From Candidatus Campbellbacteria bacterium (lineage in GTDB: Bacteria; Patescibacteriota; Minisyncoccia; Phycocordibacterales; JAXHMZ01), in NCBI GenBank assembly GCA_034521025.1, contig JAXHMZ010000004.1, forward strand, positions 41,315 to 105,314: a stretch of DNA of 64,000 nt, written 5' to 3'. This document shows, piece after piece, positions 2,388 to 57,166 of the stretch (position 1 is its first letter; each line of letters opens with the position of its first letter). A model generated the notes under the pieces. It was not told where the DNA came from. It saw nothing but the letters and a program-made list of their open reading frames with translations, and searched no databases. A program made the translations under genes and the position numbers.

Positions 2388-2393
2388 AAAAAT

Positions 2394-2441
2394 AAACCCG
2401 AGATCTTGGTGTGCGCTTGATCTTCGGGTTTATTTTTTTTT
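2394..2441 (+). terminator. Rho-independent terminator.
   Basis: Hairpin aaacccgagatc...gatcttcgggttt followed by a T11 run. Confidence 0.7.
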
Positions 2442-2463
2442 GATTTAGCTTTATTAAGCTATA

Positions 2464-22374: not shown

Positions 22375-22447
22375 GGGCCCTTAGCTTAGTTGGTAGAGCG
22401 CCTCATTTGCACTGAGGAGGTCACCAGTTCGAGTCTGGTAGGGTCCA
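22375..22447 (+). tRNA. tRNA-Ala (anticodon UGC).
   Basis: A cloverleaf can be drawn with anticodon loop TTTGCAC and a G3:U70 Ala identity pair. T-arm is CCAGTTCGAGTCTGG. CCA is not encoded. Confidence 0.85.
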
Positions 22448-22456
22448 CAGCGTTAA

Positions 22457-27473: not shown

Positions 27474-27546
27474 GGGCCATTAGCTCATTCGGTAGAGCGC
27501 ATCGCTGGCAGCGATGAGGTGACCGGTTCGATTCCGGTATGGTCCA
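27474..27546 (+). tRNA. tRNA-Ala (anticodon GGC).
   Basis: Acceptor GGGCCAT/ATGGTCC has a G3:U70 pair. D-arm is GCTC-ATTCGGTA-GAGC, anticodon loop CTGGCAG, T-arm ACCGG-TTCGATT-CCGGT. Confidence 0.8.
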
Positions 27547-27551
27547 CATTT

Positions 27552-30293: not shown

Positions 30294-30786
30294 CTCGCGT
30301 CACTCAATAATGTTTGTTTTGTGCAAAAACATTGGAAGTAACGAGCTTGTATGATTATCAAGAATTCTCCAGTATCGTGGCAAGCTGAATCGCAAGAGCA
30401 CTTAAGATACCAATTAAAGATTTACCGTGAACATCACCTAACAAAAAGTTGTTAAATATTACACGAACCCCGAATTGTTTGAAAAAATTTCAAAAGAAAC
30501 GCAACAAAAAATGAGGGAGGGCAAAGGTCACATGGCTGCATCTGTGGAGGTACTGCGCAAATACCAAAACGAACTCCGCGATGCGCTCGGTGGTCCGCAG
30601 CAGTAATTCCAGCACTAGCGTAAGATAAAAGATTGTGGTATCGTCTCAGCAGAGAGGCGTCTTGGGGAGGACGTCTTTTCGTTTCTAGACGCAGTTACAG
30701 TACCAAGATGACTGTGACACTTGCACATTGACAGGGGAAGGAAGACAGAGGCAGGAAGAACAAATCCACCGAAAGGAGGTGAAATC

Positions 30787-32058
30787 ATGTACCGAACGCA
30801 AGTAGCTCGCGCCGCAATCGTTCTGTTTTGGATGACCTTAATGACGGTTGCGTTCGCGCAGCCATACGAGATTGTCCGGGCGGGCGACGAAAATCTGACG
30901 TTGCGCGTCGAGCGGGGGTTTACCCCGTGGGATTTCTGGGTGGCGAATGCCGACCGGAACACCTGCGGCTGGTCGGACTTCCGTCCGGCCGTAAACGCGC
31001 TCAACCCAAGCCATGTGGCGAGTGAGTTTCGCGCGATTGCGATCGACTCCGAATTCCGTGTGCCACAAGCGTGTGCTTCGGGCATAGTCAACGTGGCGCC
31101 AGCAGAAACGGATCTTGCACTGCTCGCAGAGAGCATCGATCGTTTCTCGGCGGCATTGGCCAATGCCGCGTCTCGGAACACGGTGAGCAGTGTAGAATTC
31201 GAGGAAATCGAGCAGCGCGTCAAGGGGGTTGAGGAGCGCATCGCTGAACTCGAAAACAACGATGAGCGGCTCAGCGGCCAAGTCGACGAGCTCTCCGCTT
31301 TCGTCGATGCGAGGTTCGCGAACCTCGCCCGAGAGCGCGACACCGGCGTGTTTTGGCAGTGGCCATATCGCTGGTGGGTGAGGGTTCTTATCTTTTTTGT
31401 GATCCTCGCGATTGTGGTTGCGCTACTCTACTACATAGAGCGCATCCGGAATGAGCGAAATCGCCAAAAAGGAAACCCTCCTGACCCGAAGTCGCGTATC
31501 ACGAAGATGCAGGATGAAATAGCCCGGCTTCGTGATAAAAATCAAGAGCTTCGAGACGAAGCTGTGGCCTACAAAGGAGCTCGCGACAAACTTCGCGAAG
31601 AAGTTGCGTTACTCAGAAATACGATCGAACGGCATAATGAAGAAAGCAACAAAATCCGCGAAGAACGCGATCGCGAAGTTGAAGCGCTTCGCGAAGAAGT
31701 GGATCGGCTTAGCAGGCAGGCGAAAGCATACCCCGAGGGGCATGTCGAGCGCGTGACAGTGCAGAACAAAACAACAGGAGGGGAAAAGGCCATGCTGTTA
31801 AAGCACGAACCTCCATATGTCACGGTATTCGACACCGACGGGAATCACATTAGTGGTCCCATGCACCGCAAAACGGCGATCAAACGCGCCGAAGAGAGCG
31901 AAGAAGAATCTGCTCATGCTAGAGGTGAGGTCGTCGAATCCGAGAAAACGTCAGAGGGGTCTTCCAAGAAAGGCAATCCCTCAAAAACACGCCGGGGCGG
32001 CAGACACGCCCATCGACGAAGGCAAAATCGCAACAAGAAGGACAAAGTGACGTCGTAG
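30787..32058 (+). CDS. Island-encoded bitopic membrane protein with a signal peptide, an ectodomain of about 190 aa, a TM helix and an R/E-rich cytoplasmic coiled coil with a basic tail.
   Basis: A GGAGGTG RBS lies 7 nt before ATG 30787. The order is signal peptide, TM helix VLIFFVILAIVVALLYYI, then heptad-like repeats (ARLRDKNQELRDEA...EALREEVDRLSRQ). The minus-strand ORFs 30615..31343 and 30838..31281 are GC-rich shadows. Confidence 0.6.
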   Translation: MYRTQVARAAIVLFWMTLMTVAFAQPYEIVRAGDENLTLRVERGFTPWDFWVANADRNTCGWSDFRPAVNALNPSHVASEFRAIAIDSEFRVPQACASGIVNVAPAETDLALLAESIDRFSAALANAASRNTVSSVEFEEIEQRVKGVEERIAELENNDERLSGQVDELSAFVDARFANLARERDTGVFWQWPYRWWVRVLIFFVILAIVVALLYYIERIRNERNRQKGNPPDPKSRITKMQDEIARLRDKNQELRDEAVAYKGARDKLREEVALLRNTIERHNEESNKIREERDREVEALREEVDRLSRQAKAYPEGHVERVTVQNKTTGGEKAMLLKHEPPYVTVFDTDGNHISGPMHRKTAIKRAEESEEESAHARGEVVESEKTSEGSSKKGNPSKTRRGGRHAHRRRQNRNKKDKVTS

Positions 32059-34745: not shown

Positions 34746-36239
34746 ATGAAGATAGATACACTAATAAAAGAATTAAATCAACGCATCGATAAAGCTGAAA
34801 TAGATTCCGATGTAGAAGAAGTTGGAACGGTAGCAGAGGTGCATGACGGGATCGCTAGAATTTCCGGCTTGTCGGCCGTAGAATCTTCTGAAATGCTTTT
34901 GTTCCCCGGTGGAGTGATGGGTCTTGCTCTAAACCTGGAAGAAGACGCAGTGGGTTCAATCATCATCGGAGACGCGAGCGGGATCAAAGAAGGTGACACA
35001 GTAAAAAGAACTAAAAATATCCTTTCCATTCCTGTCGGCGAAAAAATGATCGGGAGAGTTATAAACCCACTAGGAGATCCGCTCGACGGCAAGGGTGACA
35101 TAGAATCAAGGGACAACTATCTTCTTGAGAAAAAGGCCCCCGGAGTGATGGAGCGAGAGCCTGTCTCAGAGCCTGTGCAAACCGGAATAAAAGCAATAGA
35201 CGCGATGATACCGGTTGGCAGAGGACAGCGTGAGCTCATCATCGGTGACCGTCAGACAGGGAAAACGACAGTGGCGGTGGATACGATACTAAATCAAAAA
35301 GGCAAGGATCTGATTTGTATTTATGTTGCCGTCAATCAAAAACAATCAAAAGTTGCCAGAGTGGTCAAAACCCTCGAAGAAAATGGAGCACTTGAGTACA
35401 CCACTGTAGTTTTAGCCGGCGCCTCTGATGGTCCTGCTCTTTCTTATCTTGCTCCATACGCCGGCGCTTCACTGGGAGAGTATTTTATGGATCAAGGCAA
35501 AGATGTGTTGGTAGTATTTGACGACCTGTCAAAACATGCTGCTTCTTATCGAGAGATCTCACTCTTATTAAGGCGCCCTCCCGGACGAGAGGCATATCCG
35601 GGTGACGTGTTTTATATTCACTCTAGATTATTGGAACGAGCCGCCAAGAGAGACAAAGAACACGGAGGTGGATCAATGACCGCTCTACCTATAATCGAGA
35701 CGCAGGCGGGGGATATTTCTTCGTACATTCCTACTAACGTTATTTCTATAACAGATGGACAAATTTTCCTTGAGACCGGGCTGTTTTATCGAGGCGTACG
35801 TCCGGCTATAAATATTGGAAACTCGGTTTCTCGTGTCGGGGGTTCGGCGCAGATCAAGTCAATGAAGAAAGTATCCGGACGAATGAAATTAGACCTTGCT
35901 CAATATAGAGAACTGGAGTCTTTTTCTCAATTTGCATCAGACTTGGATCAGGAAACAAAACAATCACTCGATAGGGGTCAACGAATTGTAGAGCTTTTAA
36001 AACAACCAGCTAACAGGCCTGTGCCCGTAGGAATTCAGATCGCTCTTGTCTACGCCGTAAACTCTGGCTTTCTTGACGAGGTTCCTATCCAGGAAATTTC
36101 TAAATGGGAAAAAGATCTGTGGTTGTATCTCGAATCGTCCCACGCTGATCTATTGGATAAATTGGTAGATGGTTGGGACGATGAAACAGAGGAATCTCTA
36201 AAGCAAGCGCTTTATAAATTTGAGAAAACTCGGACTTAA
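34746..36239 (+). CDS. atpA: F0F1 ATP synthase subunit alpha.
   Basis: Walker A GDRQTGKT is present, along with motifs [14 protein letters not shown] and DDLSKHA. Confidence 0.95.
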
Positions 36240-36244
36240 TTGAT

Positions 36245-38541
<2,297 letters not shown>

Positions 38542-38546
38542 ATCTT

Positions 38547-38813
38547 ATGCACGAAAAATTTAAGTGTAAAATAGCAACTCCTCTTGGAAACGTATTTGAC
38601 TCCACAGTGGAAAGGGTAACGATTCCGACAGAGTCCGGAGAAATAACCGTACTTGCTCACCATGAACCTTTAGTCGCATTGGCGCGCAAAGGGGCGGCAA
38701 TTCTTGAAATTGAAGATTCTAGTGAAAAACACTTTGAACTTGGAGAAGGAGTTGTGGAAATGAGGCGAGACGGAACTCTGCTTCTTTTGCTAGAAAGTGC
38801 AGTGGAAAAATAA
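38547..38813 (+). CDS. atpC: F0F1 ATP synthase subunit epsilon (88 aa, beta-sandwich only).
   Basis: IATPLGNVFDSTVERVTIPTESGEITVLAHHEPLV matches the epsilon N-terminal domain. There is no C-terminal helical hairpin. Confidence 0.75.
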   Translation: MHEKFKCKIATPLGNVFDSTVERVTIPTESGEITVLAHHEPLVALARKGAAILEIEDSSEKHFELGEGVVEMRRDGTLLLLLESAVEK

Positions 38814-38862
38814 AATCCTCCAACGGATAGTGTGTGTTTAAAAAATTAAAGTTGAGAAAACA

Positions 38863-39300
38863 ATGACAAATAACAAAAAGACTCTGATCGCGATCTATTG
38901 CTCCGACCCGCGTTTTACGGGATCGGCTGAATCTAGAGCGATAGAGAGCTTTAAGAACAAATTTGAAAACGAACTGGGGCTTTCGATCGAAAGCGTGGAT
39001 TTTATTCGTATTCCCGGACCTGATGCTCTAGCAGTCAAATATAGCGATGAAAAACGTAATGCTACTACAAGTTTTATACTAGATCTAATAGGAGCACATA
39101 ACGTAGTTGGTGTAGCTATCGCGGGGCATAGCGACTGTGCCGGCAATCAAGCTAGTGACGAGGATCACAGAAAGGACACAATAAGCTCCGCTGAGTATCT
39201 TCATGATACTATTTTTCAAGGTCCAGTGGGTGCGTTCTTGATGTTTCCTCCGAGCGACGGTAGAGAAGAAAGAGTAGAGACTCTAAAGTTAATTTCATAG
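38863..39300 (+). CDS. Small beta-carbonic-anhydrase-like protein.
   Basis: It carries the beta-CA zinc-ligand signatures CSDPRF (CxDxR) and GHSDCAG (HxxC). It is shorter than canonical beta-CA, so the activity is uncertain. Confidence 0.4.
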   Translation: MTNNKKTLIAIYCSDPRFTGSAESRAIESFKNKFENELGLSIESVDFIRIPGPDALAVKYSDEKRNATTSFILDLIGAHNVVGVAIAGHSDCAGNQASDEDHRKDTISSAEYLHDTIFQGPVGAFLMFPPSDGREERVETLKLIS

Positions 39301-39348
39301 TCAAGCTGGCAACTTAGAAGATGCGTAATTTAATTAGTTATTTATCTA

Positions 39349-39780
39349 TTGAATAGAGCTTTTATTAGCAACTACTTGCATTATCAAGGACTTTATGGTC
39401 AAAATAGTTCCTGTGATATGAAATATGTAGTTAAAAGAATTATTAATCTATTTCCCGGAAGGTTTCTTTTTGCCGGTCTAAATGGAAACAACCTAGGTAA
39501 AGAAGAAGATGATCGGGAGGTTATAAATATACTTGCGCGCTATAGGGAGATCAAGCAAGAACAAAACGCGATCGTAATAGAGACTGCGTTACCTATAACC
39601 GAATCCGACAAGAAAAGTGTTAGAGATATGTTGGGAGCGCCGGAGAATACTTTAGTCGTTGAGAAATTAAGTCCCGCACTAGTTAATTCGTTGCAGATAA
39701 TATATCAAGGTCAGATATATAGTTTCCAAAGCGATAATAGGTTAGAGAAAGTAAAAAAGAATTTTATACACATAAAATAG
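39349..39780 (+). CDS. Hypothetical protein.
   Basis: ORF only. The start could be ATG 39418. Confidence 0.35.
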   Translation: MNRAFISNYLHYQGLYGQNSSCDMKYVVKRIINLFPGRFLFAGLNGNNLGKEEDDREVINILARYREIKQEQNAIVIETALPITESDKKSVRDMLGAPENTLVVEKLSPALVNSLQIIYQGQIYSFQSDNRLEKVKKNFIHIK

Positions 39781-39843
39781 AGTTCCGGCGCCTTGAGTTT
39801 GTGTGCTATAGTAGCATTGTTCGATCCTAAATGAGTCAATTCT

Positions 39844-40164
39844 ATGCAAGAACTTTTGGATTATAATTGCGAGGAAATAGACAAAAAAGAACTCTCGCAA
39901 GAAGAGATAGATGAATATCTTGATGAACTTCCCGACTGGAACTTAAATGAAGATTCTACTATCTCCAAATCGGTTACTTTTGATTCATTTGCGGAAGCGG
40001 TTGAGTATGTGAATTCTGTTGCGTCAATTGCAGAGTCTGAAGATCATCATCCGGATATTGATCTGCGCTATAATACTGTTTATCTAAGACTGACCACTCA
40101 CGACCTCGGAGATCTAACACTTTGTGATTTTGTTGTCGCGGCTAAAATAAGTGGACTAAGTTAA
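39844..40164 (+). CDS. Pterin-4-alpha-carbinolamine dehydratase (PCD/DCoH).
   Basis: The SEDHHPDIDLRYNTV motif matches the PCD signature. Confidence 0.8.
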   Translation: MQELLDYNCEEIDKKELSQEEIDEYLDELPDWNLNEDSTISKSVTFDSFAEAVEYVNSVASIAESEDHHPDIDLRYNTVYLRLTTHDLGDLTLCDFVVAAKISGLS

Positions 40165-40182
40165 AAAAGTAAAAACAAAACT

Positions 40183-40434
40183 ATGGGAATTAAAGATTTC
40201 ATGACAAGAAAACTCCTTGAGCGTCAGATGAAAGATATGCCCAAGGATCAGAGGGATATGATCATAGCGGCAGTGCAAAAAAATCCCGAACTTTTTGAAA
40301 AAATATCAAAGGAAATACAAGAGAAAACCAAACAAGGCAAAAATCAAACGGCTGCCGCTATGGAGGTTATGAGAGCGCACCAGAGTGAATTACAACAAGC
40401 AATGCAAGATGTAGGTCAAAACAACAATAATTGA
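40183..40434 (+). CDS. Small hypothetical helical protein.
   Basis: ORF only. Confidence 0.35.
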   Translation: MGIKDFMTRKLLERQMKDMPKDQRDMIIAAVQKNPELFEKISKEIQEKTKQGKNQTAAAMEVMRAHQSELQQAMQDVGQNNNN

Positions 40435-40563
40435 TCTATTAAGTTTTACCTTGCGCAAAATTGAGAATAATTGTAAAACTAAACCAGTAATCCTATATAA
40501 GGATTTTGTTGTTTAAGTGAATAGAATTCTGGCTGTAGGCATTCCGAGAAAGGAGAGAGAGTT

Positions 40564-40857
40564 ATGAGACGGCTACTGGGTGTTTTCTTGCTGATCGCCC
40601 TGTCGAGCATAATAACCAGGATGAATGGTACTCCAATTGCTTGGGAGACGTTGGTAAGCTTTGTCTTGGTTATGGCGCTCCTTTGTGTGCTGTTTCTTCC
40701 GTACATAGCAAGATGGTACAACAACGGAAACAGTTGCGATGAATTGGAGGCGGAACTGACTAGACTGAGAAGAGAAAACGATGAATTGAGAAGAAAGAAC
40801 CAAGAAAAATACCAAAAAGGAATTCTAGTAAAAACAGACAAATCAAAGACTAGCTAA
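40564..40857 (+). CDS. Hypothetical two-TM membrane protein with a C-terminal coiled coil.
   Basis: An RBS aggagagag precedes the start. The C-terminus shows LEAELTRLRRENDELRRKN. A hairpin terminator at about 40863-40893 follows. Confidence 0.4.
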   Translation: MRRLLGVFLLIALSSIITRMNGTPIAWETLVSFVLVMALLCVLFLPYIARWYNNGNSCDELEAELTRLRRENDELRRKNQEKYQKGILVKTDKSKTS

Positions 40858-40923
40858 ATCAAAGCGCCCGTAGTTCAGCGGAGCGCTTTTTATTTAACGG
40901 TTTTTTGCTACAATGCGCTCTGT

Positions 40924-42027
40924 ATGAGCTTATCTATTGGCATAGTAGGTTTGCCAAATGTTGGCAAATCAACCCTTTTTAACGCGTTAACACGTAATAA
41001 TGTTTTGGCGGCTAATTATCCGTTTGCCACGATCGATCCTTCGGTGGGTGTGGTTGCAGTGCCGGATGAAAGGGTGGAAAGACTTTCTAAGTTATCAAAT
41101 TCAAAGAAAACCATTCCGGCAGTTGTCGAGTTCGTTGATATTGCCGGGTTAGTGAAGGGAGCGTCAACGGGAGAAGGTCTGGGAAATGCGTTTCTTTCAA
41201 ACGTGAGAGAAACGAACGCGATAGCGGAAGTGGTGCGAATTTTTGAAGATGAAAGTGTTACTCATGTTAGCGAAAAAATAGATCCGCTTGATGATATCGA
41301 GACAATAAACCTGGAACTGATCTTGTCCGACGAGCAAACAATAGCCAAAAGGCGCGGGAATATAGTGAGAGACGTAAAACGAGGAGACAAAGACGCCGTA
41401 GAGGAAGACAGAGCTCTCGAGAACTTAGAGAAAACACTCCGGGAAGGTGTTTTTATTTCACACAAAGGACTCAATAGTGATTTAGAAGAAAGGTTGGCAA
41501 GAGAGCTCAATCTTCTGACAGCAAAACCTCTAATTTACGTTTTAAATAAAAAAGCCGGTGCAAAAAACTTGGATGAAATAGACGACGAGAGATTTAAAAA
41601 ACTGATGAGCTTTTTAGAAGGTTCCAAAAGTGAATATGTGATCGTTGACGCAGGCATAGAAGACGAGTTAAAAGACATTGAAGCTCGTGAAAAGGGAGTA
41701 TTTCGCGAGGAACTTGGAGCGCCGGGAGATGACGGCATAAGTAACCTCATAAAATCAGGATATGCATCACTTGATCTGATCTCTTACTTCACTACCGGGG
41801 AGGACGAAACCCGTGCCTGGACAACCAAGCGAGGATCTACAGCCCCAGAAGCTGGAGCGGCGATCCATACGGACTTCAAAGAAAAGTTTATCCGAGCCGA
41901 AGTTATTTCATACGGTGAATTGATCGCGATCGGGTCTTTCGCCAAAGCCCGTTCCGAAGGAAAGATACGTACTGAAGGAAAAGAGTACGTGGTAGAAGAT
42001 GGCGATGTTATCGAGTTTAAAATTTAG
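40924..42027 (+). CDS. ychF: Ribosome-binding ATPase YchF (Obg-family).
   Basis: GIVGLPNVGKSTLFNALT is present, followed by a TGS domain at the C-terminus. Confidence 0.9.
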   Translation: MSLSIGIVGLPNVGKSTLFNALTRNNVLAANYPFATIDPSVGVVAVPDERVERLSKLSNSKKTIPAVVEFVDIAGLVKGASTGEGLGNAFLSNVRETNAIAEVVRIFEDESVTHVSEKIDPLDDIETINLELILSDEQTIAKRRGNIVRDVKRGDKDAVEEDRALENLEKTLREGVFISHKGLNSDLEERLARELNLLTAKPLIYVLNKKAGAKNLDEIDDERFKKLMSFLEGSKSEYVIVDAGIEDELKDIEAREKGVFREELGAPGDDGISNLIKSGYASLDLISYFTTGEDETRAWTTKRGSTAPEAGAAIHTDFKEKFIRAEVISYGELIAIGSFAKARSEGKIRTEGKEYVVEDGDVIEFKI

Positions 42028-42178
42028 ATATATTTAATATAATAAAAGCTTGTCATTGTTCTAATTTACTTGTCTAATATATATGATATACTGCCTTAGT
42101 AACACGCTGGACTAGATGTTTAGCTACGTTTAGCAGACTATTTGGGAATTATTTATACCTTTTACTAATTTGGGCTTT

Positions 42179-45067
42179 ATGACTAAATACGACCACAAGG
42201 ATATAGAGGAAAAATGGCAAAAATTTTGGGCGAAGCAAGATCTATATAAAGCCGTCGATAATTCAGATAAAGAAAAATATTACATTTTGGATATGTTCCC
42301 ATACCCGTCCGGTTCGGGGCTTCACGTGGGACACGTAGAGAGTTATACAGCAACCGATATCTACTCTCGTTTTAAGAGAATGCAGGGCTATAACGTTCTT
42401 CACCCAATGGGTTGGGATGCGTTCGGATTACCGGCAGAAAACTACGCAGTCAAGACTGGCGTTCCCCCGCAAGAAACCACAGACAAGTCTACTGATGTAT
42501 TTAGAGAACAGATAAAATCTCTTGGCCTTTCTTATGATTGGTCGCGAGAGATCAATACATCCTCTCCAGAATATTACAAATGGACACAGTGGCTTTTTTT
42601 GTTGCTTTACAAAAATAAACTGGCGTACAAAAAGAAAGCCACAGTAAATTGGTGTCCCGGATGTCAGACTGTCTTGGCCAATGAGCAGGTAGTGGACGGA
42701 GAGTGCGAAAGGTGTGATTCGGCCGTGGAAAAGAAAGAATTATCACAGTGGTTTTTCAACATTTTAAAATATGCCGACGAGCTAATTGATGGTTTAGATA
42801 CGGTAGACTGGCCAGAGTCTACAAAACTGGCTCAAAAAAATTGGATAGGAAAAAGCGAAGGAGCTATTTTTAGATTTCCCCTGAATAAAAAATTTCGTTA
42901 CGTGATCTTACATGGGTACGCGAGTGGCCCTGAAAAGCATTTTTTGCCTTGGCTCAGGAGGAAACTAGAGGAGCAAGGTCACTCTGTAGAAATTCCCACA
43001 CTACCGAACTCTGACGATCCAAACATTGAAGAGCAAGTAAAATATGTAAATGAAAACGTTAATTTAGATGAAGATACAATACTCTTAGGACATTCGCTTG
43101 GTACTGTAGTTGCTCTAAAGTATCTTGAAAATTCAAACAGCAAGATCCATGAGCTTGTGTTGTTCGGTGGGTTTATCGATACCGATATCAACGTAGACCG
43201 GGACTTTTTTGAGACCTTTGATTGGAAGTTTGATTTCGAGAATATAAAGGATAAGTCTCGAAGTATAAAAATTGTTCGAGACGAAAGCGATGATTCTATA
43301 CCGCCTGAACAGGCCGAAAAAATTGAACGCAGGATCGGCGGTGAGATCATAGATGTGCAGGCTCGCAAACCACATTTCAGAGATTCAGAAGAGCCAGAGG
43401 TACTGCGTACTTCACTTCCGTCAATCGAAGTGTTTACTACTCGTCCTGATACTTTATTTGGTGCTACTTATATGATCGTTTCTCCTGAGAACAGCTTGGT
43501 AGAAAAATATGCTAAATATATTGAGAATATTGATGAGGTCAGGAGTTATGTAGAGAGCGCAAAAGCGAAAACAGATATTGAACGAAGCTCAGAAGAAAGA
43601 GAGAAAACCGGGGTTGAATTAAAGGGACTGAAAGCGATAAATGAAGCAACGAAAGAGGAGCTGCCTGTGTTTGTCGCGGACTATGTTTTGAATACTTATG
43701 CTACAGGCTCGATCATGGCTGTTCCAGCTCATGATGAGAGGGATCATCAATTTGCCGAGAAGATGAATTTGCCTATTGTCGAAGTTGTATCCGGCGAAGG
43801 TGATCTGCCCAGGTCTGAGCCGGGTGTACTTATAAACTCTGGTGAATTTGATGGATTTTCTAACGCTGAGGCGAGGAGCAAAATTACTGAAGCATTTGGA
43901 GGAGAGATAAAAACAACTTATAAACTAAGAGATTGGCTAGTATCGAGACAGCGTTACTGGGGAGCACCAATTCCTATAGTGTATGATCCGGAAGGAAACC
44001 CCCATCCAATTCCCGAAAAATACTTACCGTGGGAGTTACCTACGGATGTAGATTATCAACCAAAAGGAACAGCGCCTTTGGGTTCTTCAGAAGAGCTAAA
44101 AAAGCGCACCGAAGAAATTTTTGGAGAAGGATGGACTCCGGAGATCGATACCATGGACACCTTTGTTGATTCAAGTTGGTACTATATGCGCTTTACAGAT
44201 CCACAAAACGCGGATGAATTCGCTAATAGTGAAAAATTGGATTCTTGGCTTCCCGTTGATATGTATATAGGAGGAGCGGAGCATACTGTATTGCACTTGT
44301 TGTATGCGCGATTTTTTACAAAAGTACTTCGAGATCTTGGTTATCTGGGGATAGACGAACCTTTTCAATCCCTAAGACATCAAGGTATGATACTTGGTCC
44401 GGACGGAAATAAAATGAGCAAAAGCAAGGGGAATATTGTTAACCCAGATGAAATGATGGAGCGCTTTGGAGCTGATACTGTTCGAATGTATGAGATGTTC
44501 ATGGGGCCACTAGAGCAAGCCAAAGCATGGTCTACTGACAATATGATCGGCCTAAGAAGATTCTTGGAGAAGTCATGGCGACTACAAGAAAAAGTTACAG
44601 AAAAAAGTGAGACTGCAGGTAGTATTGTAGCTCGCACGATCAAAAAAGTTACCGAAGATATTGAAAACCTCCAGTTTAATACCGCGATCTCTGCCTTAAT
44701 GATCTTAGCTAACGATTTTGATAAGAAAGAAAAGATCTTAGAGGCGGATTTCGAAGCTTATTTGCGTCTATTGGCACCATTTGCTCCACATATTACTGAA
44801 GAGATGTATCAGAATTTGGGCTATAAAACTTCAGTCCATTCGACTAAATGGCCTGAATTTAAAGAAGAAGACCTGTCTCTAGATGAGTTGACCTTAGCAG
44901 TACAGGTAGACGGTAAGGTACGAGATTCGATCACGGTTCCGAGCGAGGCGAACGAGGAAGAGATAAAACAAATGGCTCGTACCGAAAAGGTAGAAAAATG
45001 GATAGACGGCAGAGAAGTTAAAAAAATAATCGTTATACCGGGGAAGATCGTTAGTATCGTCCTATAA
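42179..45067 (+). CDS. leuS: Leucine--tRNA ligase with an inserted alpha/beta-hydrolase domain of about 175 aa.
   Basis: HIGH (HVGHVESY) and KMSKS motifs are present, along with the editing and anticodon-binding regions. Between NWIGKSEG and TTRPDT there are about 190 aa, where E. coli LeuS has about 20. Confidence 0.9.
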   Translation: MTKYDHKDIEEKWQKFWAKQDLYKAVDNSDKEKYYILDMFPYPSGSGLHVGHVESYTATDIYSRFKRMQGYNVLHPMGWDAFGLPAENYAVKTGVPPQETTDKSTDVFREQIKSLGLSYDWSREINTSSPEYYKWTQWLFLLLYKNKLAYKKKATVNWCPGCQTVLANEQVVDGECERCDSAVEKKELSQWFFNILKYADELIDGLDTVDWPESTKLAQKNWIGKSEGAIFRFPLNKKFRYVILHGYASGPEKHFLPWLRRKLEEQGHSVEIPTLPNSDDPNIEEQVKYVNENVNLDEDTILLGHSLGTVVALKYLENSNSKIHELVLFGGFIDTDINVDRDFFETFDWKFDFENIKDKSRSIKIVRDESDDSIPPEQAEKIERRIGGEIIDVQARKPHFRDSEEPEVLRTSLPSIEVFTTRPDTLFGATYMIVSPENSLVEKYAKYIENIDEVRSYVESAKAKTDIERSSEEREKTGVELKGLKAINEATKEELPVFVADYVLNTYATGSIMAVPAHDERDHQFAEKMNLPIVEVVSGEGDLPRSEPGVLINSGEFDGFSNAEARSKITEAFGGEIKTTYKLRDWLVSRQRYWGAPIPIVYDPEGNPHPIPEKYLPWELPTDVDYQPKGTAPLGSSEELKKRTEEIFGEGWTPEIDTMDTFVDSSWYYMRFTDPQNADEFANSEKLDSWLPVDMYIGGAEHTVLHLLYARFFTKVLRDLGYLGIDEPFQSLRHQGMILGPDGNKMSKSKGNIVNPDEMMERFGADTVRMYEMFMGPLEQAKAWSTDNMIGLRRFLEKSWRLQEKVTEKSETAGSIVARTIKKVTEDIENLQFNTAISALMILANDFDKKEKILEADFEAYLRLLAPFAPHITEEMYQNLGYKTSVHSTKWPEFKEEDLSLDELTLAVQVDGKVRDSITVPSEANEEEIKQMARTEKVEKWIDGREVKKIIVIPGKIVSIVL

Positions 45068-45152
45068 GCTTATGTAAATTACAAATATTTAGAAAATATA
45101 AATTTGACTATTTGTAAAATCAGTGTTAATATAAATCAAATTAAAAAAGAAA

Positions 45153-46196
45153 ATGTCCAGAAAACTAACATTTAAACCCAACCAAGTAACAAAGAAACTA
45201 ATTATAGTTCTTCCAGAACGAGCAAGAGATATAATAGTAGCTCGCTATGGACTTGGACAGAATCGCGAAAAAATGACCCTAGAAGGAATAGGGAATCTTT
45301 ATGGTATCACCAGAGAGCGCGTTAGGCAGATAGAAAACCATTCCCTAAATTCAATTCGTAAGTCAGAGCAATATGAAGAACATCAGATATCTTTCAAGGA
45401 GCTTGAAGAGATCATCAGATCTCTCGGAGGTGTAGTAGCTGAAGAGGATCTTCTAAAACATCTATCAGACAGCGAAAGGATTCAGAACCACATAGTATTC
45501 CTTTTAGAGCTAGGAAATAACTTCAAGAAACAAAAAGAAGATAAACACCTAAAGCATCGTTGGTACATTGAGGACGAATTACACGATAAGGTGCACAAAG
45601 CGATACAAGATCTCTATTCTAACCTGACTGACGAAGAGCTGGTTACTGAACCGGAGATCATCAGTCGATTTCTCGAGCACGTTAAAGATGTCTCTGAAGA
45701 ATATAGAAACGAAGAGATCGCTAGGCGGTGGCTTGGTGTTGCTAAGCATATAGATCGTAATCCTCTTGGCGAATGGGGACGATCCACTTCTCCTAATGTG
45801 AGAGTTAAGGGAATGAGAGACTACGCTTATCTGGTGATTCGAAAACATGGTTCCCCAATGCATTTTCGTGAGGTTGCCGAAAAAATTAATGAAATGTTCG
45901 GCAAGAAGGCTCATATCGCGACTACTCACAACGAATTGATAAAAGATCCTCGCTTTGTGCTTGTAGGTAGAGGTTTGTACGCTCTACGTGAGTGGGGTTA
46001 CGAAACCGGAGTGGTAAAGGATGTTATCAAATCGATACTTAAAAAACACGGACCACTTTCAAGAGAGAACATAATGGAGAAAGTTATGAAGGAGCGTTAC
46101 GTGAAAGGGAACACGATCCTCGTTAATCTCCAAGATACGGAAGTCTTTGGAAAAGACTCAAGAGGTAGGTACTATTTAAAAGGTAGCTCAAAGTAA
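45153..46196 (+). CDS. Sigma-70 region-4-like HTH protein with a C-terminal HARE-HTH domain.
   Basis: LPERARDIIVARYGL...TLEGIGNLYGITRERVRQIENHSL resembles sigma region 4.2. The C-terminal segment HFREVAEKI...RFVLVGRGLYALREWG resembles HARE-HTH. Confidence 0.5.
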   Translation: MSRKLTFKPNQVTKKLIIVLPERARDIIVARYGLGQNREKMTLEGIGNLYGITRERVRQIENHSLNSIRKSEQYEEHQISFKELEEIIRSLGGVVAEEDLLKHLSDSERIQNHIVFLLELGNNFKKQKEDKHLKHRWYIEDELHDKVHKAIQDLYSNLTDEELVTEPEIISRFLEHVKDVSEEYRNEEIARRWLGVAKHIDRNPLGEWGRSTSPNVRVKGMRDYAYLVIRKHGSPMHFREVAEKINEMFGKKAHIATTHNELIKDPRFVLVGRGLYALREWGYETGVVKDVIKSILKKHGPLSRENIMEKVMKERYVKGNTILVNLQDTEVFGKDSRGRYYLKGSSK

Positions 46197-46261
46197 AACG
46201 CTTACTCTATTTTCTTTGTAGGGAAAGACGTTCAGAATCTTTCTGATATAATGTAACTGAT

Positions 46262-47506
46262 ATGGAGCAATTTGTTCAATCATTCGAGCAAGTCACAACT
46301 GCTATAGGTCTTTTCTTGTATTTGACTTATCCAATATTACTTCCCCTGCTCCTCCTTTATGGCTTTTGGCAACTGTGGGTAACTTACGTACGTTCAAAGT
46401 TTATAGAAGATACGAAAGAGCAGGTTTTAGAGATAAAAGTACCGCGGGAAGTAAAGCGAACGCCTCTGGCAATGGAGCTTGTATTAAACGCTTTATATCA
46501 AACGGGGGGCGAGTCGACTTGGTATGATCGCTACGTTCTGGGCAAGGTGCGCTCCTGGTTTTCCCTTGAGATAGTATCGATCGGCGGCAATGTCAGGTTT
46601 TTTATATGGACCCCAGCAAAATGGAAGAACTTAATAGAGTCTCAACTATATGCTGAGTATCCCGGTATTGAAGTATTTGAATCTCCCGATTACGCGAAGT
46701 TTGTCTCATTCGATGAAAGTAAAATGGACTATTGGGGCTGTGAATTTGTGTTTTCAGAGCCGGATTATTTGCCACTAAAAACATACATGGATTACGGCAT
46801 GGATAAGCAAGCTGGTATGAAAGATGAGGATAAGGTAGATCCACTGCTTCCTACTATAGAATTTATGAGCACACTTTCTAGAAAGGAGCAGTTCTGGATT
46901 CAAATAGTAATCAGGGCTCATAAGGGTAGAAGTAAGGCCGGCGCGGGATTTTTGGGAATTTTGCCGGGCAAAGAAAAGTGGCAAGACACAGGTAAGAAGG
47001 CAATTAAAGAAACCACTGAAGCGGAGTCGAGCGGCGCTGAGGGAGCTCCTCAGTTCAAGGGACGCCTTCTCAATAAGAGTGAAGAACAGTACGTAGAAGC
47101 AATCAATAGAAACATCTCAAAGTATGGTTTTGACACTGGAGTTAGAGCTTTATATATGGGTGAAAAAGAAGCTTTTCAGGGAGCTAATATTCCAGGGTTC
47201 ATCGGTTCATTTAGACAGTTTGGCGCAAATAATTTAAACTCTTTGCGTCCTAATAACGTTACAGATTTTGATTATCCGTGGATCAAAGAGCTTAGAAAGA
47301 AAAAGCTTTCAGAGATGAAAGAAAAAATGCTAAAGGCATATAAAAGACGACAGTTTTTCCATGCCCCATTTATTAGAAAACACCAGGTGTTGAATGCCGA
47401 GCAGTTGGCCACTCTCTACCACTTCCCATCGGGAATAGTAGAAACTCCAGCCCTATCAAGAGTACAGTCACGCAAAGCTGAGCCACCTACAAACCTTCCA
47501 ACTTAA
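46262..47506 (+). CDS. Hypothetical membrane-anchored protein (414 aa).
   Basis: It has N-terminal TM helices and no recognised domain. Confidence 0.4.
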   Translation: MEQFVQSFEQVTTAIGLFLYLTYPILLPLLLLYGFWQLWVTYVRSKFIEDTKEQVLEIKVPREVKRTPLAMELVLNALYQTGGESTWYDRYVLGKVRSWFSLEIVSIGGNVRFFIWTPAKWKNLIESQLYAEYPGIEVFESPDYAKFVSFDESKMDYWGCEFVFSEPDYLPLKTYMDYGMDKQAGMKDEDKVDPLLPTIEFMSTLSRKEQFWIQIVIRAHKGRSKAGAGFLGILPGKEKWQDTGKKAIKETTEAESSGAEGAPQFKGRLLNKSEEQYVEAINRNISKYGFDTGVRALYMGEKEAFQGANIPGFIGSFRQFGANNLNSLRPNNVTDFDYPWIKELRKKKLSEMKEKMLKAYKRRQFFHAPFIRKHQVLNAEQLATLYHFPSGIVETPALSRVQSRKAEPPTNLPT

Positions 47507-47507
47507 T

Positions 47508-48473
47508 ATGGTTTTTTCACGAGTAGTCGCAGTTTTGGTTATTGTTTTCGTTTTTACTGCCTTAACAGTAAGCGCGATATTTTGGTTATCTATAACACCT
47601 AAGGCTACTGATGAGCCGGTAAAAGTTGAGATAGAACGCGGTTCAACTTTGAGCGATTCCGCTCAAAAATTAAAAGAAGCTGGGATTATCAAATCCGCTC
47701 TAGCGTTTCAAACTTATTTTCTATTTAAGGAGGACGAAAGCAAGATCGTCGCGGGTGAATATCGCTTTCTCGGAACTTCAACCGTCGAGGAGATAGCGAC
47801 TCGTTTAACCGAAGGTGATTTTGAAAATGGTTCATTAGGCATTTCTATCCCGGAAGGTTCTACCATTCAAGAGATCGCCGCTATTCTAAACAACGAATTA
47901 TCGTCTTTTGATAAGGAAGATTTTCTTAAAAAAGCGTCTCTTTTTGAGGGTTATCTTTTTCCTGATACATATATTTTTCATAAGGATGTAACTTCTGAGG
48001 AAGTAATCAGGAAAATGTATTCGAACTTTCAAAATAAAGTAGAAAGTATTGTAACCGAAGACGCTTTGGAAGATCATTCACTGAATGAAATTATCACTAT
48101 GGCTTCAATTCTTGAGGAAGAAGCGGGGAATATGGACTCTAGACAAATAATTTCCGGAATTCTTTGGAAGCGTTTAGAAAAAGGTATGCCCCTCCAAGTT
48201 GACGCTGCCTTTCTTTATGTCGATGAACTTGATGGAAAAAATACGTATTCTCTGACAACAGAAGATCTGGCGATAGAATCTCCATACAACACATATACAA
48301 ATACCGGATTACCACCAACGCCGATCACTAACCCGGGACTTGAATCTATTAGAGCGGCCGCAAATCCAATAGACTCAGAATACATTTTTTATTTATCTGA
48401 TACTCAAGGAAACACATATTATGCCGAAACGTTTGAGGAGCATATAGACAATCGTCAATTCTTGGGCAGCTAA
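47508..48473 (+). CDS. mltG: Endolytic murein transglycosylase MltG (YceG-like).
   Basis: An N-terminal TM helix is followed by a YceG domain (IPEGSTIQEIAAIL, LFPDTY, VDAAFLYV). Confidence 0.8.
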   Translation: MVFSRVVAVLVIVFVFTALTVSAIFWLSITPKATDEPVKVEIERGSTLSDSAQKLKEAGIIKSALAFQTYFLFKEDESKIVAGEYRFLGTSTVEEIATRLTEGDFENGSLGISIPEGSTIQEIAAILNNELSSFDKEDFLKKASLFEGYLFPDTYIFHKDVTSEEVIRKMYSNFQNKVESIVTEDALEDHSLNEIITMASILEEEAGNMDSRQIISGILWKRLEKGMPLQVDAAFLYVDELDGKNTYSLTTEDLAIESPYNTYTNTGLPPTPITNPGLESIRAAANPIDSEYIFYLSDTQGNTYYAETFEEHIDNRQFLGS

Positions 48474-48520
48474 AATTTTCTCGGTTTTAAATACTTGGTA
48501 AGTATAATAGTGTAAACGCT

Positions 48521-49603
48521 ATGGTTAATAAGTGGAGTGAAAAAGAAAAAGTTTTTGTCGGGATGTCGGGCGGAGTAGATTCTTCTGTTGCGGCGCTCCT
48601 GCTGAAAGAGGCGGGTTTCGAGGTAACCGGTGTTTTTATACGTGGTTGGTATCCCGAATTTCTAACTTGTAATTGGAAAGAAGATAGACGTGACGCGATG
48701 CGCGTCGCGGCGGCCTTAGACATACCCTTTTTAACTATAAACGCCGAAGAATCCTACAAGAGAGAAGTAGTCGACTATATGATCTCTGAGTATTCTCGCG
48801 GACGAACCCCGAATCCGGATGTTATGTGTAATCGACATGTAAAATTTGGGGTTTTTTACAAAGAAGCCATCAACAGAGGCGCTGATTACATAGCAACAGG
48901 TCATTATGCCAAAATGGATTCGAATAGCGAAGAAATAGAGTTAAAAATGGGCGAAGATCGAAATAAAGATCAGTCTTATTTTCTCTGGAATGTTGACAAA
49001 AGCGCGCTAACTAGCACTTTATTCCCCCTCGGTAACTATAAAAAAGAAGAAATTCGGAGTATTGCAAAGAAAAATAATTTGGTAACCGCGAACAAAAAAG
49101 ATAGCCAGGGTGTGTGTTTTCTCGGCAAGGTTTCTATGAAAGAGTTCATATCACACTATGTTTCCCCCAAAGAGGGTGAGGTCTTAGACCCTTACGGAGA
49201 GGTTATCGGTTATCACCCTGGAGCGATGTTATTTACATACGGTGAAAGAAAGGGATTTACCGTGACCAAAAAAGGAACTGAAGATAAACCACGCTATGTG
49301 GTTGCCAAAGATATAGAAAAAAATACCATAACGGTTGCAGAAAAAACTAACGACAAGTTTTCAAAATATAATAAAGAAAAAGTGCTTATTGAAAATACCA
49401 ATTGGATATCGCGAGAACCTGAAGAGAGCGAAGAATTGCTAGTGCGCTATCGTTATAGACAACCACTGATAAGGGCAAAGCTGCAAAAAAATGACGAATA
49501 TCACATTGTCATCTTTGATGAACCCCAAGAGTCCGTTACGTCCGGCCAGTCTTTGGTCGTATATAAAGACGATGTTTGTTTGGGCGGGGGTATAATCATG
49601 TAG
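48521..49603 (+). CDS. mnmA: tRNA-specific 2-thiouridylase MnmA.
   Basis: The PP-loop VFVGMSGGVDSSVAA is present, with the catalytic Cys in CNRHVKF and DSQGVCFLG. Confidence 0.9.
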   Translation: MVNKWSEKEKVFVGMSGGVDSSVAALLLKEAGFEVTGVFIRGWYPEFLTCNWKEDRRDAMRVAAALDIPFLTINAEESYKREVVDYMISEYSRGRTPNPDVMCNRHVKFGVFYKEAINRGADYIATGHYAKMDSNSEEIELKMGEDRNKDQSYFLWNVDKSALTSTLFPLGNYKKEEIRSIAKKNNLVTANKKDSQGVCFLGKVSMKEFISHYVSPKEGEVLDPYGEVIGYHPGAMLFTYGERKGFTVTKKGTEDKPRYVVAKDIEKNTITVAEKTNDKFSKYNKEKVLIENTNWISREPEESEELLVRYRYRQPLIRAKLQKNDEYHIVIFDEPQESVTSGQSLVVYKDDVCLGGGIIM

Positions 49604-55282: not shown

Positions 55283-57166
55283 ATGAAAACAGCAGAAGTA
55301 AGAAAACGCTATCTAGACTTTTTTGCAAGCAAGGGGCACAGAATCGTTCCTTCGGCTTCTTTGGTACCCACAGATGATCCCACCACTCTTTTTACTGGCT
55401 CTGGTATGCAGCCTATGGTTCCTTACTTACTAGGCGAAGACCATCCCTTGGGTTCTAGGATAGTTGATTCGCAAAAATGTTTTCGCGCGGAAGATATTGA
55501 AGAAATTGGAGATAACCGCCATACGACCTTTTTTGAAATGCTTGGCAATTGGTCCCTGGGTGACTACTTTAAAGAAGAACAACTCTCCTGGCTTTTTGAA
55601 TTTCTAACAGATAAGGAAGCGGGGTTAGGCTTAGATCCGGAACGGCTATATATAACTGTTTTTCACGGTGATAAAAACAACGATCTGCCTAAAGATACTG
55701 AGTCGGTAGAAATTTGGAAGAGTTTGTTCAAACAAAAGAACATTGAGGCAAATGAGGTTGAGGTAGGCACTGAGGAAAATGGTAGTGAGATCGGTTTAGA
55801 AGGAGGTCGTATTTTTTACTATGATGCTTCAAAAAACTGGTGGAGCCGCGGTGGCACCCCCGATGATATGCCGGTGGGCGAACCGGGTGGTCCCGACAGC
55901 GAGGTTTTTTATGAATTTCAAGATGTAGAACACGATCCGGCGTTCGGTAAAAAATGCCACCCTAATTGTGATTGCGGACGTTTTCTCGAGATCGGCAATT
56001 CCGTATTTATGCAGTACGTAAAAAAAGCAGAAGGTCATTTTGAAAAACTACCTAAAGAAAATGTAGATTTCGGCGGTGGATTAGAACGACTAACAGCTGT
56101 TACGGAAGACTTCTCCGATATATTTAAAATTGACGTATTGCGCAGTATTATTGAAAGACTTGAGGATCATAGCGGTGAGAGATATGAGAATTCTGAGAAT
56201 AAGAACTCATTTCGTGTGATCGCGGATCATATTCGCGGTGCTGTTTTTATGATCTCTGATGGCGTTACACCCTCAAACAGCGAACGAGGATATTTTGTTA
56301 GGCGTCTAATACGTCGTTCTATCCGCCACGCGAATTTACTTGGTATCGAAACGAAAAAATTAAAAGACCTTGTTTCTGTAGTTGCTAACAATTATCGAGA
56401 AGTTTATCCAGAGGTTTTTGAAAGCCAAGAATGGATACAAGATGAAATTGAATCTGAAGAGAGTAAGTTTAAATTAGCACTCGATAGAGGATTAAAAGAA
56501 TTTAGAAAAATTATTGAAAAAGAAGACAAAATTAGCGGCAAGGGTGCATTCAAGCTGTTTACTACTCATGGATTCCCGTTTGAGCTCACAGAAGAATTGG
56601 CGCGAGAGTACGGTAAAGAAGTAGACAAAGAGGCATTTGAGGAAGAATATAGGATCCACCAAGAGGAATCCAGAAAAGGAGCGGATAAGAAGTTTAAGGG
56701 GGGACTTGGGGACACTGGTGAAATGTCAGTAAAATATCACACAGCAACGCACTTATTAAATGCCGCCCTAAGAGATGTACTTGGAGAACACGTAGAGCAA
56801 AAAGGATCGAATATTACTCCAGAAAGACTGCGTTTTGACTTTTCTCACAGCGAAAAACTTACAGAAGAAGAGAAAAAAGAAATCGAGACTTTTGTTAATG
56901 GAGCGATCGAAAGAAGCTTACCGGTGAGCTATAGCGAAATGACCTTAGAAGAAGCAAGAGCTCAAGGAGCAGTGGGGGTATTTGAAGATAAATACGAAGA
57001 AAAAGTTCGGGTGTATAAGATCGGAGATCGTAGCACAGGAGTAGTCAGCCTGGAAATTTGCGGTGGTCCTCACGTTGAAAATACCGGGGAGTTGGGAAAA
57101 TTTCGTATCAAGAAAGAAGAGGCGTCTTCAGCCGGAGTTCGCCGAATAAAAGCAATTCTTGAATAG
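55283..57166 (+). CDS. alaS: Alanine--tRNA ligase, short form (catalytic + tRNA-recognition + editing; no C-Ala domain).
   Basis: The class II core shows FTGSGMQP and FEMLGNWSFGDYFK-like motifs. The editing domain shows HTATHLLNAALRDVLG...CGGPH. The protein ends after the editing domain at 627 aa. Confidence 0.85.
   Translation: MKTAEVRKRYLDFFASKGHRIVPSASLVPTDDPTTLFTGSGMQPMVPYLLGEDHPLGSRIVDSQKCFRAEDIEEIGDNRHTTFFEMLGNWSLGDYFKEEQLSWLFEFLTDKEAGLGLDPERLYITVFHGDKNNDLPKDTESVEIWKSLFKQKNIEANEVEVGTEENGSEIGLEGGRIFYYDASKNWWSRGGTPDDMPVGEPGGPDSEVFYEFQDVEHDPAFGKKCHPNCDCGRFLEIGNSVFMQYVKKAEGHFEKLPKENVDFGGGLERLTAVTEDFSDIFKIDVLRSIIERLEDHSGERYENSENKNSFRVIADHIRGAVFMISDGVTPSNSERGYFVRRLIRRSIRHANLLGIETKKLKDLVSVVANNYREVYPEVFESQEWIQDEIESEESKFKLALDRGLKEFRKIIEKEDKISGKGAFKLFTTHGFPFELTEELAREYGKEVDKEAFEEEYRIHQEESRKGADKKFKGGLGDTGEMSVKYHTATHLLNAALRDVLGEHVEQKGSNITPERLRFDFSHSEKLTEEEKKEIETFVNGAIERSLPVSYSEMTLEEARAQGAVGVFEDKYEEKVRVYKIGDRSTGVVSLEICGGPHVENTGELGKFRIKKEEASSAGVRRIKAILE

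Follow-up and report, generated by a model that had tools for sequence, protein, structure and literature searches.

A predicted serine hydrolase nested in the editing domain of a Campbellbacteria leucyl-tRNA synthetase, and its recurrent, facultative partnership with that enzyme

What is a second, apparently complete enzyme doing inside the editing domain of leucyl-tRNA synthetase (LeuRS)? The question is raised by a 64,000-nucleotide stretch of DNA from a Candidatus Campbellbacteria bacterium (assembly GCA_034521025.1, contig JAXHMZ010000004.1, positions 41,315 to 105,314 of the forward strand), which we refer to as the window. Its leuS gene encodes, in addition to an ordinary LeuRS, some 176 residues that resemble the small alpha/beta serine hydrolases YdeN and RBBP9. 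Proofreading by aminoacyl-tRNA synthetases (aaRSs) is thought to use a small, well-catalogued set of editing folds. We find that the hydrolase and LeuRS form a recurrent, facultative partnership in bacteria of the Candidate Phyla Radiation (CPR, Patescibacteria) and, apparently, in DPANN archaea. The hydrolase subfamily occurs in three arrangements: nested in LeuRS at the site seen in the window (site A), nested in LeuRS at another site (site B), or encoded by a separate gene of about 180 codons that abuts leuS.

The extra segment is delimited by alignment with insert-less CPR LeuRS proteins. Where the window protein reads '...FRFPLNKK[F242...P417]SIEVFTTRPDT', the insert-less proteins read '...ISFNVSGGAVTIKVFTTRPDT'. 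An earlier note on this DNA had placed about 175 extra residues between the motifs NWIGKSEG (residues 224-231) and TTRPDT (423-428), and the size and the site both stand; its limits, 42878-43405, translate exactly to residues 237-412, and the true edges lie a few residues to the right, at 242 and 417. The motifs on which it relied (NWIGKSEG, ILHGY, GHSLG at 307-311, DESDDSIPPE, KPHF with His402, and TTRPDT) are all present in the open reading frame (ORF). Its assignment of the segment to the YdeN/RBBP9-type serine hydrolases is upheld by profile, sequence and fold comparisons. The insert alone matches Pfam PF06821 (Ser_hydrolase) with 43.2 bits (E=5e-11), and with 39.1 bits within the full protein, significantly above the curated cut-off of 22, and its weaker Pfam matches are to other alpha/beta-hydrolase families only. 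In a phmmer search of the PDB, the best solved relatives are Bacillus subtilis YdeN (1uxo; E=7.6e-14) and, at about 2e-5, human RBBP9. Modelled by AlphaFold with 36 homologues, the domain reaches a mean per-residue confidence (pLDDT) of 96.5 and a global score (pTM) of 0.92, and Foldseek places YdeN 1uxo first among PDB structures (TM 0.84, rmsd 2.1 Å), with RBBP9 chains next at TM 0.80-0.83 and all other hydrolases at 0.72 or lower. In a full-length model based on 60 sequences (pLDDT 90, pTM 0.80), the domain folds confidently alongside its host, with a pLDDT of 90-96 over the insert.

The full-length model and a comparison with the Thermus thermophilus enzyme locate the domain in its host. 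In the model, the insert lies immediately between host strands E228-238 and E418-423, so that its linkers are only 2-4 residues long. In the alignment with T. thermophilus LeuRS (1h3n), window residue 241 corresponds to K239 and residue 419 to I243; the insert thus takes the place of the turn in the hairpin 'EGAEILFPVEGKE-VRIPVFTTRPDT'. The Pfam model of the editing domain, connective peptide 1 (CP1, PF13603), whose match to protein P0137 is uninterrupted, is split by the insert near profile positions 21/22, which puts the hydrolase inside CP1, five residues upstream of the Thr-rich editing-site peptide. As predicted from sequence and models, the insert is a complete, independently folding hydrolase in the tip of the first CP1 beta-hairpin. 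We also considered an intein or another recent mobile insertion and rejected it. Pfam finds no Hint/splicing or homing-endonuclease domain in the insert, its junction residues are not conserved as Ser/Thr/Cys nucleophiles, the dip in GC content is small (0.36-0.38 over the insert against about 0.41-0.44 in the flanks), and promoter and terminator matches around it are at chance level.

To judge from its sequence, the host is a true bacterial-type LeuRS that is otherwise complete. The reading frame (42170-45067, forward strand) runs continuously through the insert. The deposited protein MDZ7726324.1 ('leucine--tRNA ligase [Candidatus Campbellbacteria bacterium]'), which comes from a 166-kb contig of a metagenome-assembled genome (MAG) and begins at ATG 42179, is 100% identical to the window LeuRS. 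The protein scores 969.5 bits against TIGR00396 (cut-off 548.4), in two matched stretches that flank the unmatched segment. Within CP1, T423, T424, R425, D427 and T428 of the Thr-rich peptide, as well as H521, D522, R524 and D525, are invariant in insert carriers and non-carriers alike. With the HIGH, KMSKS, TTRPDT and HD..RD motifs all invariant, the host appears to be a functional synthetase and editor that has a further, intact catalytic centre. Since the CP1 motifs are invariant in the carriers, the hydrolase is not substituting for a decayed editing site, and replacement of such a domain is thereby ruled out as an explanation of the insert. The leucine-specific domain of the T. thermophilus and Escherichia coli enzymes, which is not universal, is absent from the window LeuRS: residues 745-749 (44402-44416) align with T. 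thermophilus residues 581-638, about 56 residues being missing just before KMSKS. This absence is a lineage trait and no argument against the identity of the protein as a LeuRS.

The catalytic residues of the hydrolase can be assigned by alignment, and their conservation was counted in the 74 LeuRS proteins that carry the hydrolase at the same site, drawn from the 120 best LeuRS relatives of the window protein, the closest of which are 63-66% identical to it. GHSLG aligns with the AHSLG elbow of YdeN and with Ser75 of RBBP9. Ser309, Asp374 and His402 are the predicted triad, and the domain is apparently active; the intact elbow and the Asp and His candidates that the earlier note had pointed out align with YdeN and are kept in 72-74 of the 74 homologues, even though the inserts share a mean pairwise identity of only 41%. 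His248-Gly249, which we take from general knowledge of alpha/beta hydrolases to be an oxyanion-hole element, is shared with the stand-alone homologues (His in 76 of 77, Gly in 75 of 77). Further conserved positions in the CPR subfamily are Gln289, Glu408 and Arg344, the last being Arg in 56 of the 74 carriers. Glu408 was considered as an interface residue specific to the nested form and was rejected in that role, given that free-standing members of the subfamily have it too.

The window protein is one of many. Among the 120 best relatives, all of them from CPR/Patescibacteria where a source is named, 74 carry the hydrolase at site A, the window protein included, and about 30, with lengths of 789-835 residues, have no insert. 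In many of the 120, CP1 itself harbours a NUDIX domain ('site C', core position about 365-376), either alone or together with the hydrolase. A HMMER search with the insert against 1.84 billion representatives gave 1827 matches at E<=1e-3, including 611 at E<=1e-10; among the best 150 of the 1827, which were examined, 10 clusters have the hydrolase at site B, which lies after CP1 (core position about 430-437). The site-A architecture is found in 104 protein clusters in all, and a scan of species-representative genomes, which stem from independent projects, adds 12 LeuRS loci with the site-A insert. LeuRS of related lineages thus does carry the insert, as the earlier note had wondered, and the misassembly or fusion that it had kept in view is not borne out. 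An assembly chimera, wrongly joined genes or a decayed, inactive domain might come to mind for a window that derives from a MAG. The frame is continuous, on the other hand, the deposited protein is identical, and the same junction recurs in more than 100 independent clusters and 12 genomes, which excludes an artefact of assembly or fusion; the conserved triad and the confident models likewise speak against a dead spacer. We regard the probability of this explanation, in any of its forms, as negligible.

The titles of the 12 loci (Levyibacteriota, Paceibacterota, Saccharibacteria, Pacearchaeota, Woesearchaeota and 'archaeon') span two domains of life, with the reservation that taxon labels of MAG contigs can be wrong and that one 'Gammaproteobacteria' label is doubtful. 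Contigs labelled as DPANN (Pacearchaeota, Woesearchaeota) that carry a bacterial-type nested LeuRS are L002, L004, L007, L009 and L012. On L002 ('Pacearchaeota'), the gene that adjoins the nested leuS (2121-2699, reverse strand) encodes a tRNA-splicing endonuclease (PF01974 and PF02778), an archaeal hallmark, and the composite gene thus seems to have been transferred from CPR to DPANN rather than mis-binned; the architecture, in other words, seems to have crossed between the two groups.

The same LeuRS sites accept other domains, sometimes in company with the hydrolase. P0145 has a NUDIX domain and the hydrolase in tandem at site A, and P0191 a GNAT domain and the hydrolase, likewise in tandem at site A. 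P0182 carries an IS200-like Y1 transposase domain at site A (residues 269-374) and the hydrolase at site B. P0119 has Ham1 at site A and NUDIX in CP1 (site C), and P0110 has a HAD domain in CP1 (site C).

Free-standing relatives of the insert provide the third arrangement. A similarity network resolves two groups, a 'nested-type' subfamily and ordinary YdeN-like proteins. The former comprises the LeuRS copies at sites A and B, copies in other essential proteins and some free-standing proteins of about 180 residues; the latter includes terminal fusions to Adk, NUDIX, HD, Peptidase S51, glyoxalase and ANT domains. The free-standing nested-type proteins start with Met, end right after the last helix, are 35-45% identical and have the same motifs, including Glu408. 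Six contigs were long enough for their neighbourhoods to be judged (three others and one control were too short), and in 6/6 the free-standing nested-type gene lies at leuS, within 1.5 kb or in the same operon. It stands upstream of an insert-less leuS by 6 nt (P0121), 36 nt (P0129) or 1.35 kb (P0153), 24 nt upstream of a leuS with a nested NUDIX domain (P0127), and 2 nt downstream of an insert-less leuS (P0156), Ham1 and Sua5/TsaC being members of the same cluster. The sixth, P0131, opens a five-gene same-strand operon (L022:5001-9882; GCA_020049755.1, JAHZTO010004402.1) made up of two Ser_hydrolase genes (182 and 192 residues), a YbaK-like tRNA_edit gene (162 residues), a Ham1-like NTP pyrophosphatase (205 residues) and an archaeal-type LeuRS (883 residues, TIGR00395 784 bits). 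The families in this operon are those found nested in CPR LeuRS elsewhere. No second hydrolase gene was found in the flanks of the 12 nested-LeuRS loci, so that the nested and the adjacent forms are complementary.

One of the contigs too short for such a judgement (L027:303-1749, GCA_040384245.1) has a NUDIX ORF 0.5 kb downstream of a free-standing nested-type hydrolase. With E=2e-9, this ORF fits the profile of the NUDIX domains nested in LeuRS CP1, and the two passenger families are thus linked when free as well.

What, then, might the hydrolase do? A role linked to LeuRS, in editing or deacylation, is favoured by the free-standing members that adjoin leuS, once together with a YbaK-like gene, and by the aminoacyl chemistry of RBBP9. 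Our tentative proposal is an accessory hydrolase that is coupled to LeuRS and acts through Ser309 on an ester or alpha-aminoacyl-type by-product of aminoacylation in a quality-control role, and we would put the chances of this proposal at somewhat short of even. LeuRS would keep its own aminoacylation and CP1 editing chemistry, while the hydrolase would ride on CP1 as a third, autonomous hydrolytic site. An acyl-enzyme formed at Ser309 would process a small, water-soluble ester or alpha-aminoacyl-type substrate. This substrate would be a product or by-product of aminoacylation, candidates being an aminoacyl ester (for example, the end of a mis-acylated tRNA) and an aminoacyl-nucleotide. The housecleaning activity would be supplied 1:1 with LeuRS and would be dispensable for leucylation itself.

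The characterized relatives give some guidance on chemistry. With YdeN (1uxo), the insert shares a lid-less alpha/beta fold of about 180 residues, the HG motif, the G-H-S-L-G elbow and the Asp and His of the triad; YdeN and the bacterial homologue ML-005 are free-standing, whereas the window hydrolase is nested in another enzyme. ML-005 is a short-chain esterase, and for the lid-less YdeN, soluble esters or thioesters have been predicted as substrates (PMC6119806). Human RBBP9 (2qs9, 7oex) agrees with the insert in fold (TM 0.82) and in the positions of the triad but is only 18% identical to it. RBBP9 is an aminopeptidase that cleaves alpha-aminoacyl amides and needs a free alpha-amine (PMC8866121); its reported activation of valacyclovir, a valyl-ester drug (Shenoy 2020, as cited in PMC7730578), is a reaction that, by analogy, resembles the hydrolysis of an aminoacyl-ribose ester. 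RBBP9 residues Ser76, Tyr99 and Glu108 align with Leu310, Phe335 and a variable acidic loop (residues 337-345, not strongly conserved) of the insert; they are not clearly conserved, so that the specificity of RBBP9 can hardly be transferred.

These comparisons also bear on another explanation, namely substrate supply: an RBBP9-like aminopeptidase beside the LeuRS of an auxotroph could free N-terminal hydrophobic residues, leucine among them, from scavenged peptides and so feed the synthetase in heaviest use. CPR organisms are generally described as being without amino-acid biosynthesis. The requirement of RBBP9 for a free alpha-amine would suit such a role, as would the linkage of the subfamily to LeuRS and its presence in ValRS and AlaRS, and the terminal Peptidase S51 fusion among more distant relatives. 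The substrate-binding residues of RBBP9 are not clearly conserved, however, the bacterial relative ML-005 is a short-chain esterase, and free amino acids diffuse, so that channelling would gain little; furthermore, this explanation does not account for the NUDIX, Ham1 and YbaK-like partners that co-occur. We thus consider substrate supply distinctly improbable.

In relation to established editing modules (CP1 of LeuRS, IleRS and ValRS, and the free-standing YbaK/ProX, AlaX and DTD proteins), the likeness lies in a hydrolytic module that is attached to an aaRS or encoded beside it. No homology of the insert to the known editing folds (CP1, YbaK/INS PF04073, AlaX/tRNA_SAD, DTD) was found in Pfam, NCBIfam or a PDB fold search, and if the insert edits, it would be a new kind of module. 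It would also use covalent Ser catalysis, which CP1 and YbaK are not known to do.

Several observations weigh against a LeuRS-coupled role. First of all, CP1 is fully intact, which leaves no obvious editing gap for the hydrolase to fill. Second, the alpha-amine anchor of RBBP9, Glu108, has no clearly conserved counterpart in the insert. Third, the insert is acidic (pI 4.8, net charge about -14), a property unfavourable to direct RNA binding, and binding of tRNA by charge was rejected on this ground. Fourth, the neighbourhood evidence comes from a small sample of six contigs, chosen among the free-standing matches of highest similarity, and two insert-less leuS genes, one of them collinear with the window, have no hydrolase within 5 kb; the hydrolase-leuS link is facultative, not obligatory. 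Fifth, members of this hydrolase subfamily also lie inside ValRS, AlaRS, UvrA, SecA, TsaD, Der/EngA and methionyl-tRNA formyltransferase (Fmt), as seen in P0160, P0189, P0177, P0130, P0147, P0206 and P0266, and in-frame nesting of this hydrolase in essential proteins looks like a general habit of these lineages. Finally, CPR LeuRS proteins harbour unrelated passengers, namely NUDIX, HAD, Ham1, GNAT and IS200-like Y1 transposase domains.

Much of this would be expected if the hydrolase were simply a passenger, that is, an ordinary housekeeping esterase or aminopeptidase unrelated to leucylation and lodged in a structurally permissive loop of a host that is large, essential and constitutively expressed. 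Nesting, or tight operon linkage, would secure its expression and guard it against deletion in a streamlined genome. The variety of hosts is in keeping with this explanation, as are the nesting of unrelated small enzymes at three or more sites of CPR LeuRS, the free-standing copies, which imply that the domain works alone, and the intact CP1 and acidic insert just mentioned. Furthermore, the insert evolves faster than its host (mean pairwise identity 41% against 57% in the host core), the identities of insert and core correlate only weakly (r=0.38), and insert-less LeuRS proteins interleave with carriers. A relative from Tara Oceans (L030, scaffold_349) makes the same point at a single locus. 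It is collinear with window positions 34746-49603 over ATP synthase beta, ychF, leuS and four downstream genes (38-73% protein identity), with an extra DUF5671 gene between ychF and leuS, and its leuS (794 residues) is without the 176-residue insert and without a nearby hydrolase; the orthologous locus thus shows a clean presence/absence difference. The passenger explanation leaves unexplained, on the other hand, why the free-standing genes lie at leuS in 6/6 cases, in both gene orders and beside bacterial-type as well as archaeal-type LeuRS, why the domain entered LeuRS at two separate sites, and why a YbaK-like aminoacyl-tRNA deacylase gene shares one of the operons. We regard it as the main rival and give it appreciable weight, somewhat less than the LeuRS-coupled role.

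The GNAT domain found beside the hydrolase in P0191 brings in a further explanation, in which the hydrolase would act as an antidote that destroys natural inhibitors mimicking leucyl-adenylate and so shields LeuRS at the point of attack. The serine peptidase MccF and the GNAT proteins MccE/RimL detoxify processed microcin C and aminoacyl-sulfamoyl-adenylates. By this analogy, an aminoacyl-directed serine hydrolase family, a GNAT domain nested at the same LeuRS site and an NCBIfam model for IleRS with GNAT could be taken as pointing to detoxification. The insert has no homology to MccF, however, no inhibitor is known for these organisms, and the presence of the subfamily in SecA, UvrA and Der would be unexplained. 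We consider an antidote role very improbable.

The proposed quality-control role can be widened, though this step is speculative and we think it unlikely. LeuRS in CPR and DPANN organisms might be a docking platform for quality-control hydrolases (serine hydrolase, NUDIX, Ham1, HAD, GNAT and YbaK-like), either nested or adjacent, with the serine hydrolase serving as a third site that clears aminoacyl esters or aminoacyl-nucleotides, and possibly toxins that mimic leucyl-adenylate, beyond the reach of CP1.

Some precedents exist for the architecture itself. NCBIfam NF040702 ('isoleucine--tRNA ligase, N-acetyltransferase domain-containing') likewise describes a class I aaRS with an unrelated second catalytic domain, and differs in its passenger (GNAT) and its host (IleRS). 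In nested-domain architectures in general (e.g. PMC13114784), one domain likewise interrupts another at a surface loop and both folds are kept. What sets the present case apart from such architectures is that a single small enzyme family has entered several essential hosts, and several sites, time and again within two groups of ultra-small symbionts, and that nesting alternates with an adjacent-gene arrangement. The earlier note had stated that no aaRS with an embedded serine hydrolase was described. This agrees with the literature, since we found no published description, among open-access papers and bioRxiv, of a hydrolase nested in an aaRS or of domain nesting in CPR/DPANN proteins, nor any published functional study of IleRS-GNAT proteins of the NF040702 type or of hydrolase-LeuRS proteins. 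The statement has to be tempered, however, for the NCBIfam IleRS-GNAT model exists and many hydrolase-bearing LeuRS sequences are already public, in databases under plain names.

If the proposed role is correct, a serine hydrolase with covalent catalysis would be a new candidate partner in the quality control of an essential translation enzyme. The pairing takes at least three forms, is spread over two groups of ultra-small symbionts and involves archaeal-type as well as bacterial-type LeuRS. For the YdeN/RBBP9 family in bacteria, the proposed role would offer a first physiological lead. Even if the hydrolase is a passenger, the in-frame nesting of small housekeeping enzymes in essential CPR/DPANN genes, together with an apparent cross-domain transfer, is worth describing as a phenomenon of genome streamlining, and one with consequences for annotation and for phylogenetics that relies on LeuRS as a marker. 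The features of the window gene are collected in Table 1.

Table 1. Positions in the window of the leuS gene, its host motifs and the nested hydrolase (carriers, the 74 LeuRS proteins with the hydrolase at site A)
Feature	Position (strand)	Residues	Basis and conservation
leuS	42170..45067 (+)	965 aa from TTG 42170; 962 aa from ATG 42179 as deposited	ORF and TIGR00396
HIGH signature, synthetic site	42323..42334 (+)	H52-V-G-H55	Sequence; H52, G54, H55 invariant in 60 aligned LeuRS
Host beta-strand 1 of first CP1 hairpin, with 3-residue linker NKK	42851..42892 (+)	aa 228-238 (KSEGAIFRFPL) plus linker	Full-length model; aligns with T. thermophilus LeuRS up to K239
Nested YdeN/RBBP9-type alpha/beta serine hydrolase (predicted)	42893..43420 (+)	aa 242-417 (~176 aa)	Absent from insert-less orthologues; PF06821; YdeN match; domain model
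HG motif	42911..42916 (+)	His248-Gly249	H248 in 73/74, G249 in 72/74 carriers
Nucleophile elbow (putative)	43088..43102 (+)	G307-H-S309-L-G311; Ser309 codon 43094-43096	S309 and G311 in 74/74 carriers
Catalytic acid (putative)	43289..43291 (+)	Asp374	Asp in 72/74 carriers, Glu in the other 2; aligns with YdeN 'skddqivp'
Catalytic His (putative)	43373..43375 (+)	His402	His in 74/74 carriers; KPHF aligns with GGHF of YdeN
Host beta-strand 2, leading into Thr-rich editing-site peptide	43421..43453 (+)	S418-IEVFTTRPDT428	Strand E418-423 in model; aligns with T. thermophilus LeuRS from I243
Rest of CP1 editing domain, including AVPAHDERD	43421..43894 (+)	aa 418-575	PF13603 177 bits, profile positions 22-183
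KMSKS loop, synthetic site	44411..44425 (+)	K748-S752	Sequence; M749, S750, K751 invariant in alignment
Anticodon-binding domain	44627..44959 (+)	aa 820-930	PF08264 83.6 bits

The remainder of the window adds a few minor observations. No paralogue of the hydrolase was found elsewhere in the 64 kb, and two window proteins that belong to host families named above are without a nested hydrolase: AlaRS (55283-57166), which at 627 residues is short and ends right after its tRNA_SAD domain, and UvrA (16784-19384, 866 residues). Rfam finds no leader RNA or T-box upstream of leuS, its only matches in the window being two tRNA-Ala genes, 5 kb apart, at 22375-22448 and 27474-27547, with anticodons TGC and GGC. 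The ORFs at 30721-32058 (445 residues) and 58505-59803 (432 residues) are without a Pfam match at E<=1e-5, and the long ORFs of the window are nearly all on the forward strand. Outside the window, a Yanofskybacteria contig (L029:7406-10765, JAUYJF010000033.1) has, directly downstream of an insert-less leuS, a gene for a GlmS-like protein of 1119 residues (GATase and SIS domains) that carries an intein with a LAGLIDADG endonuclease.

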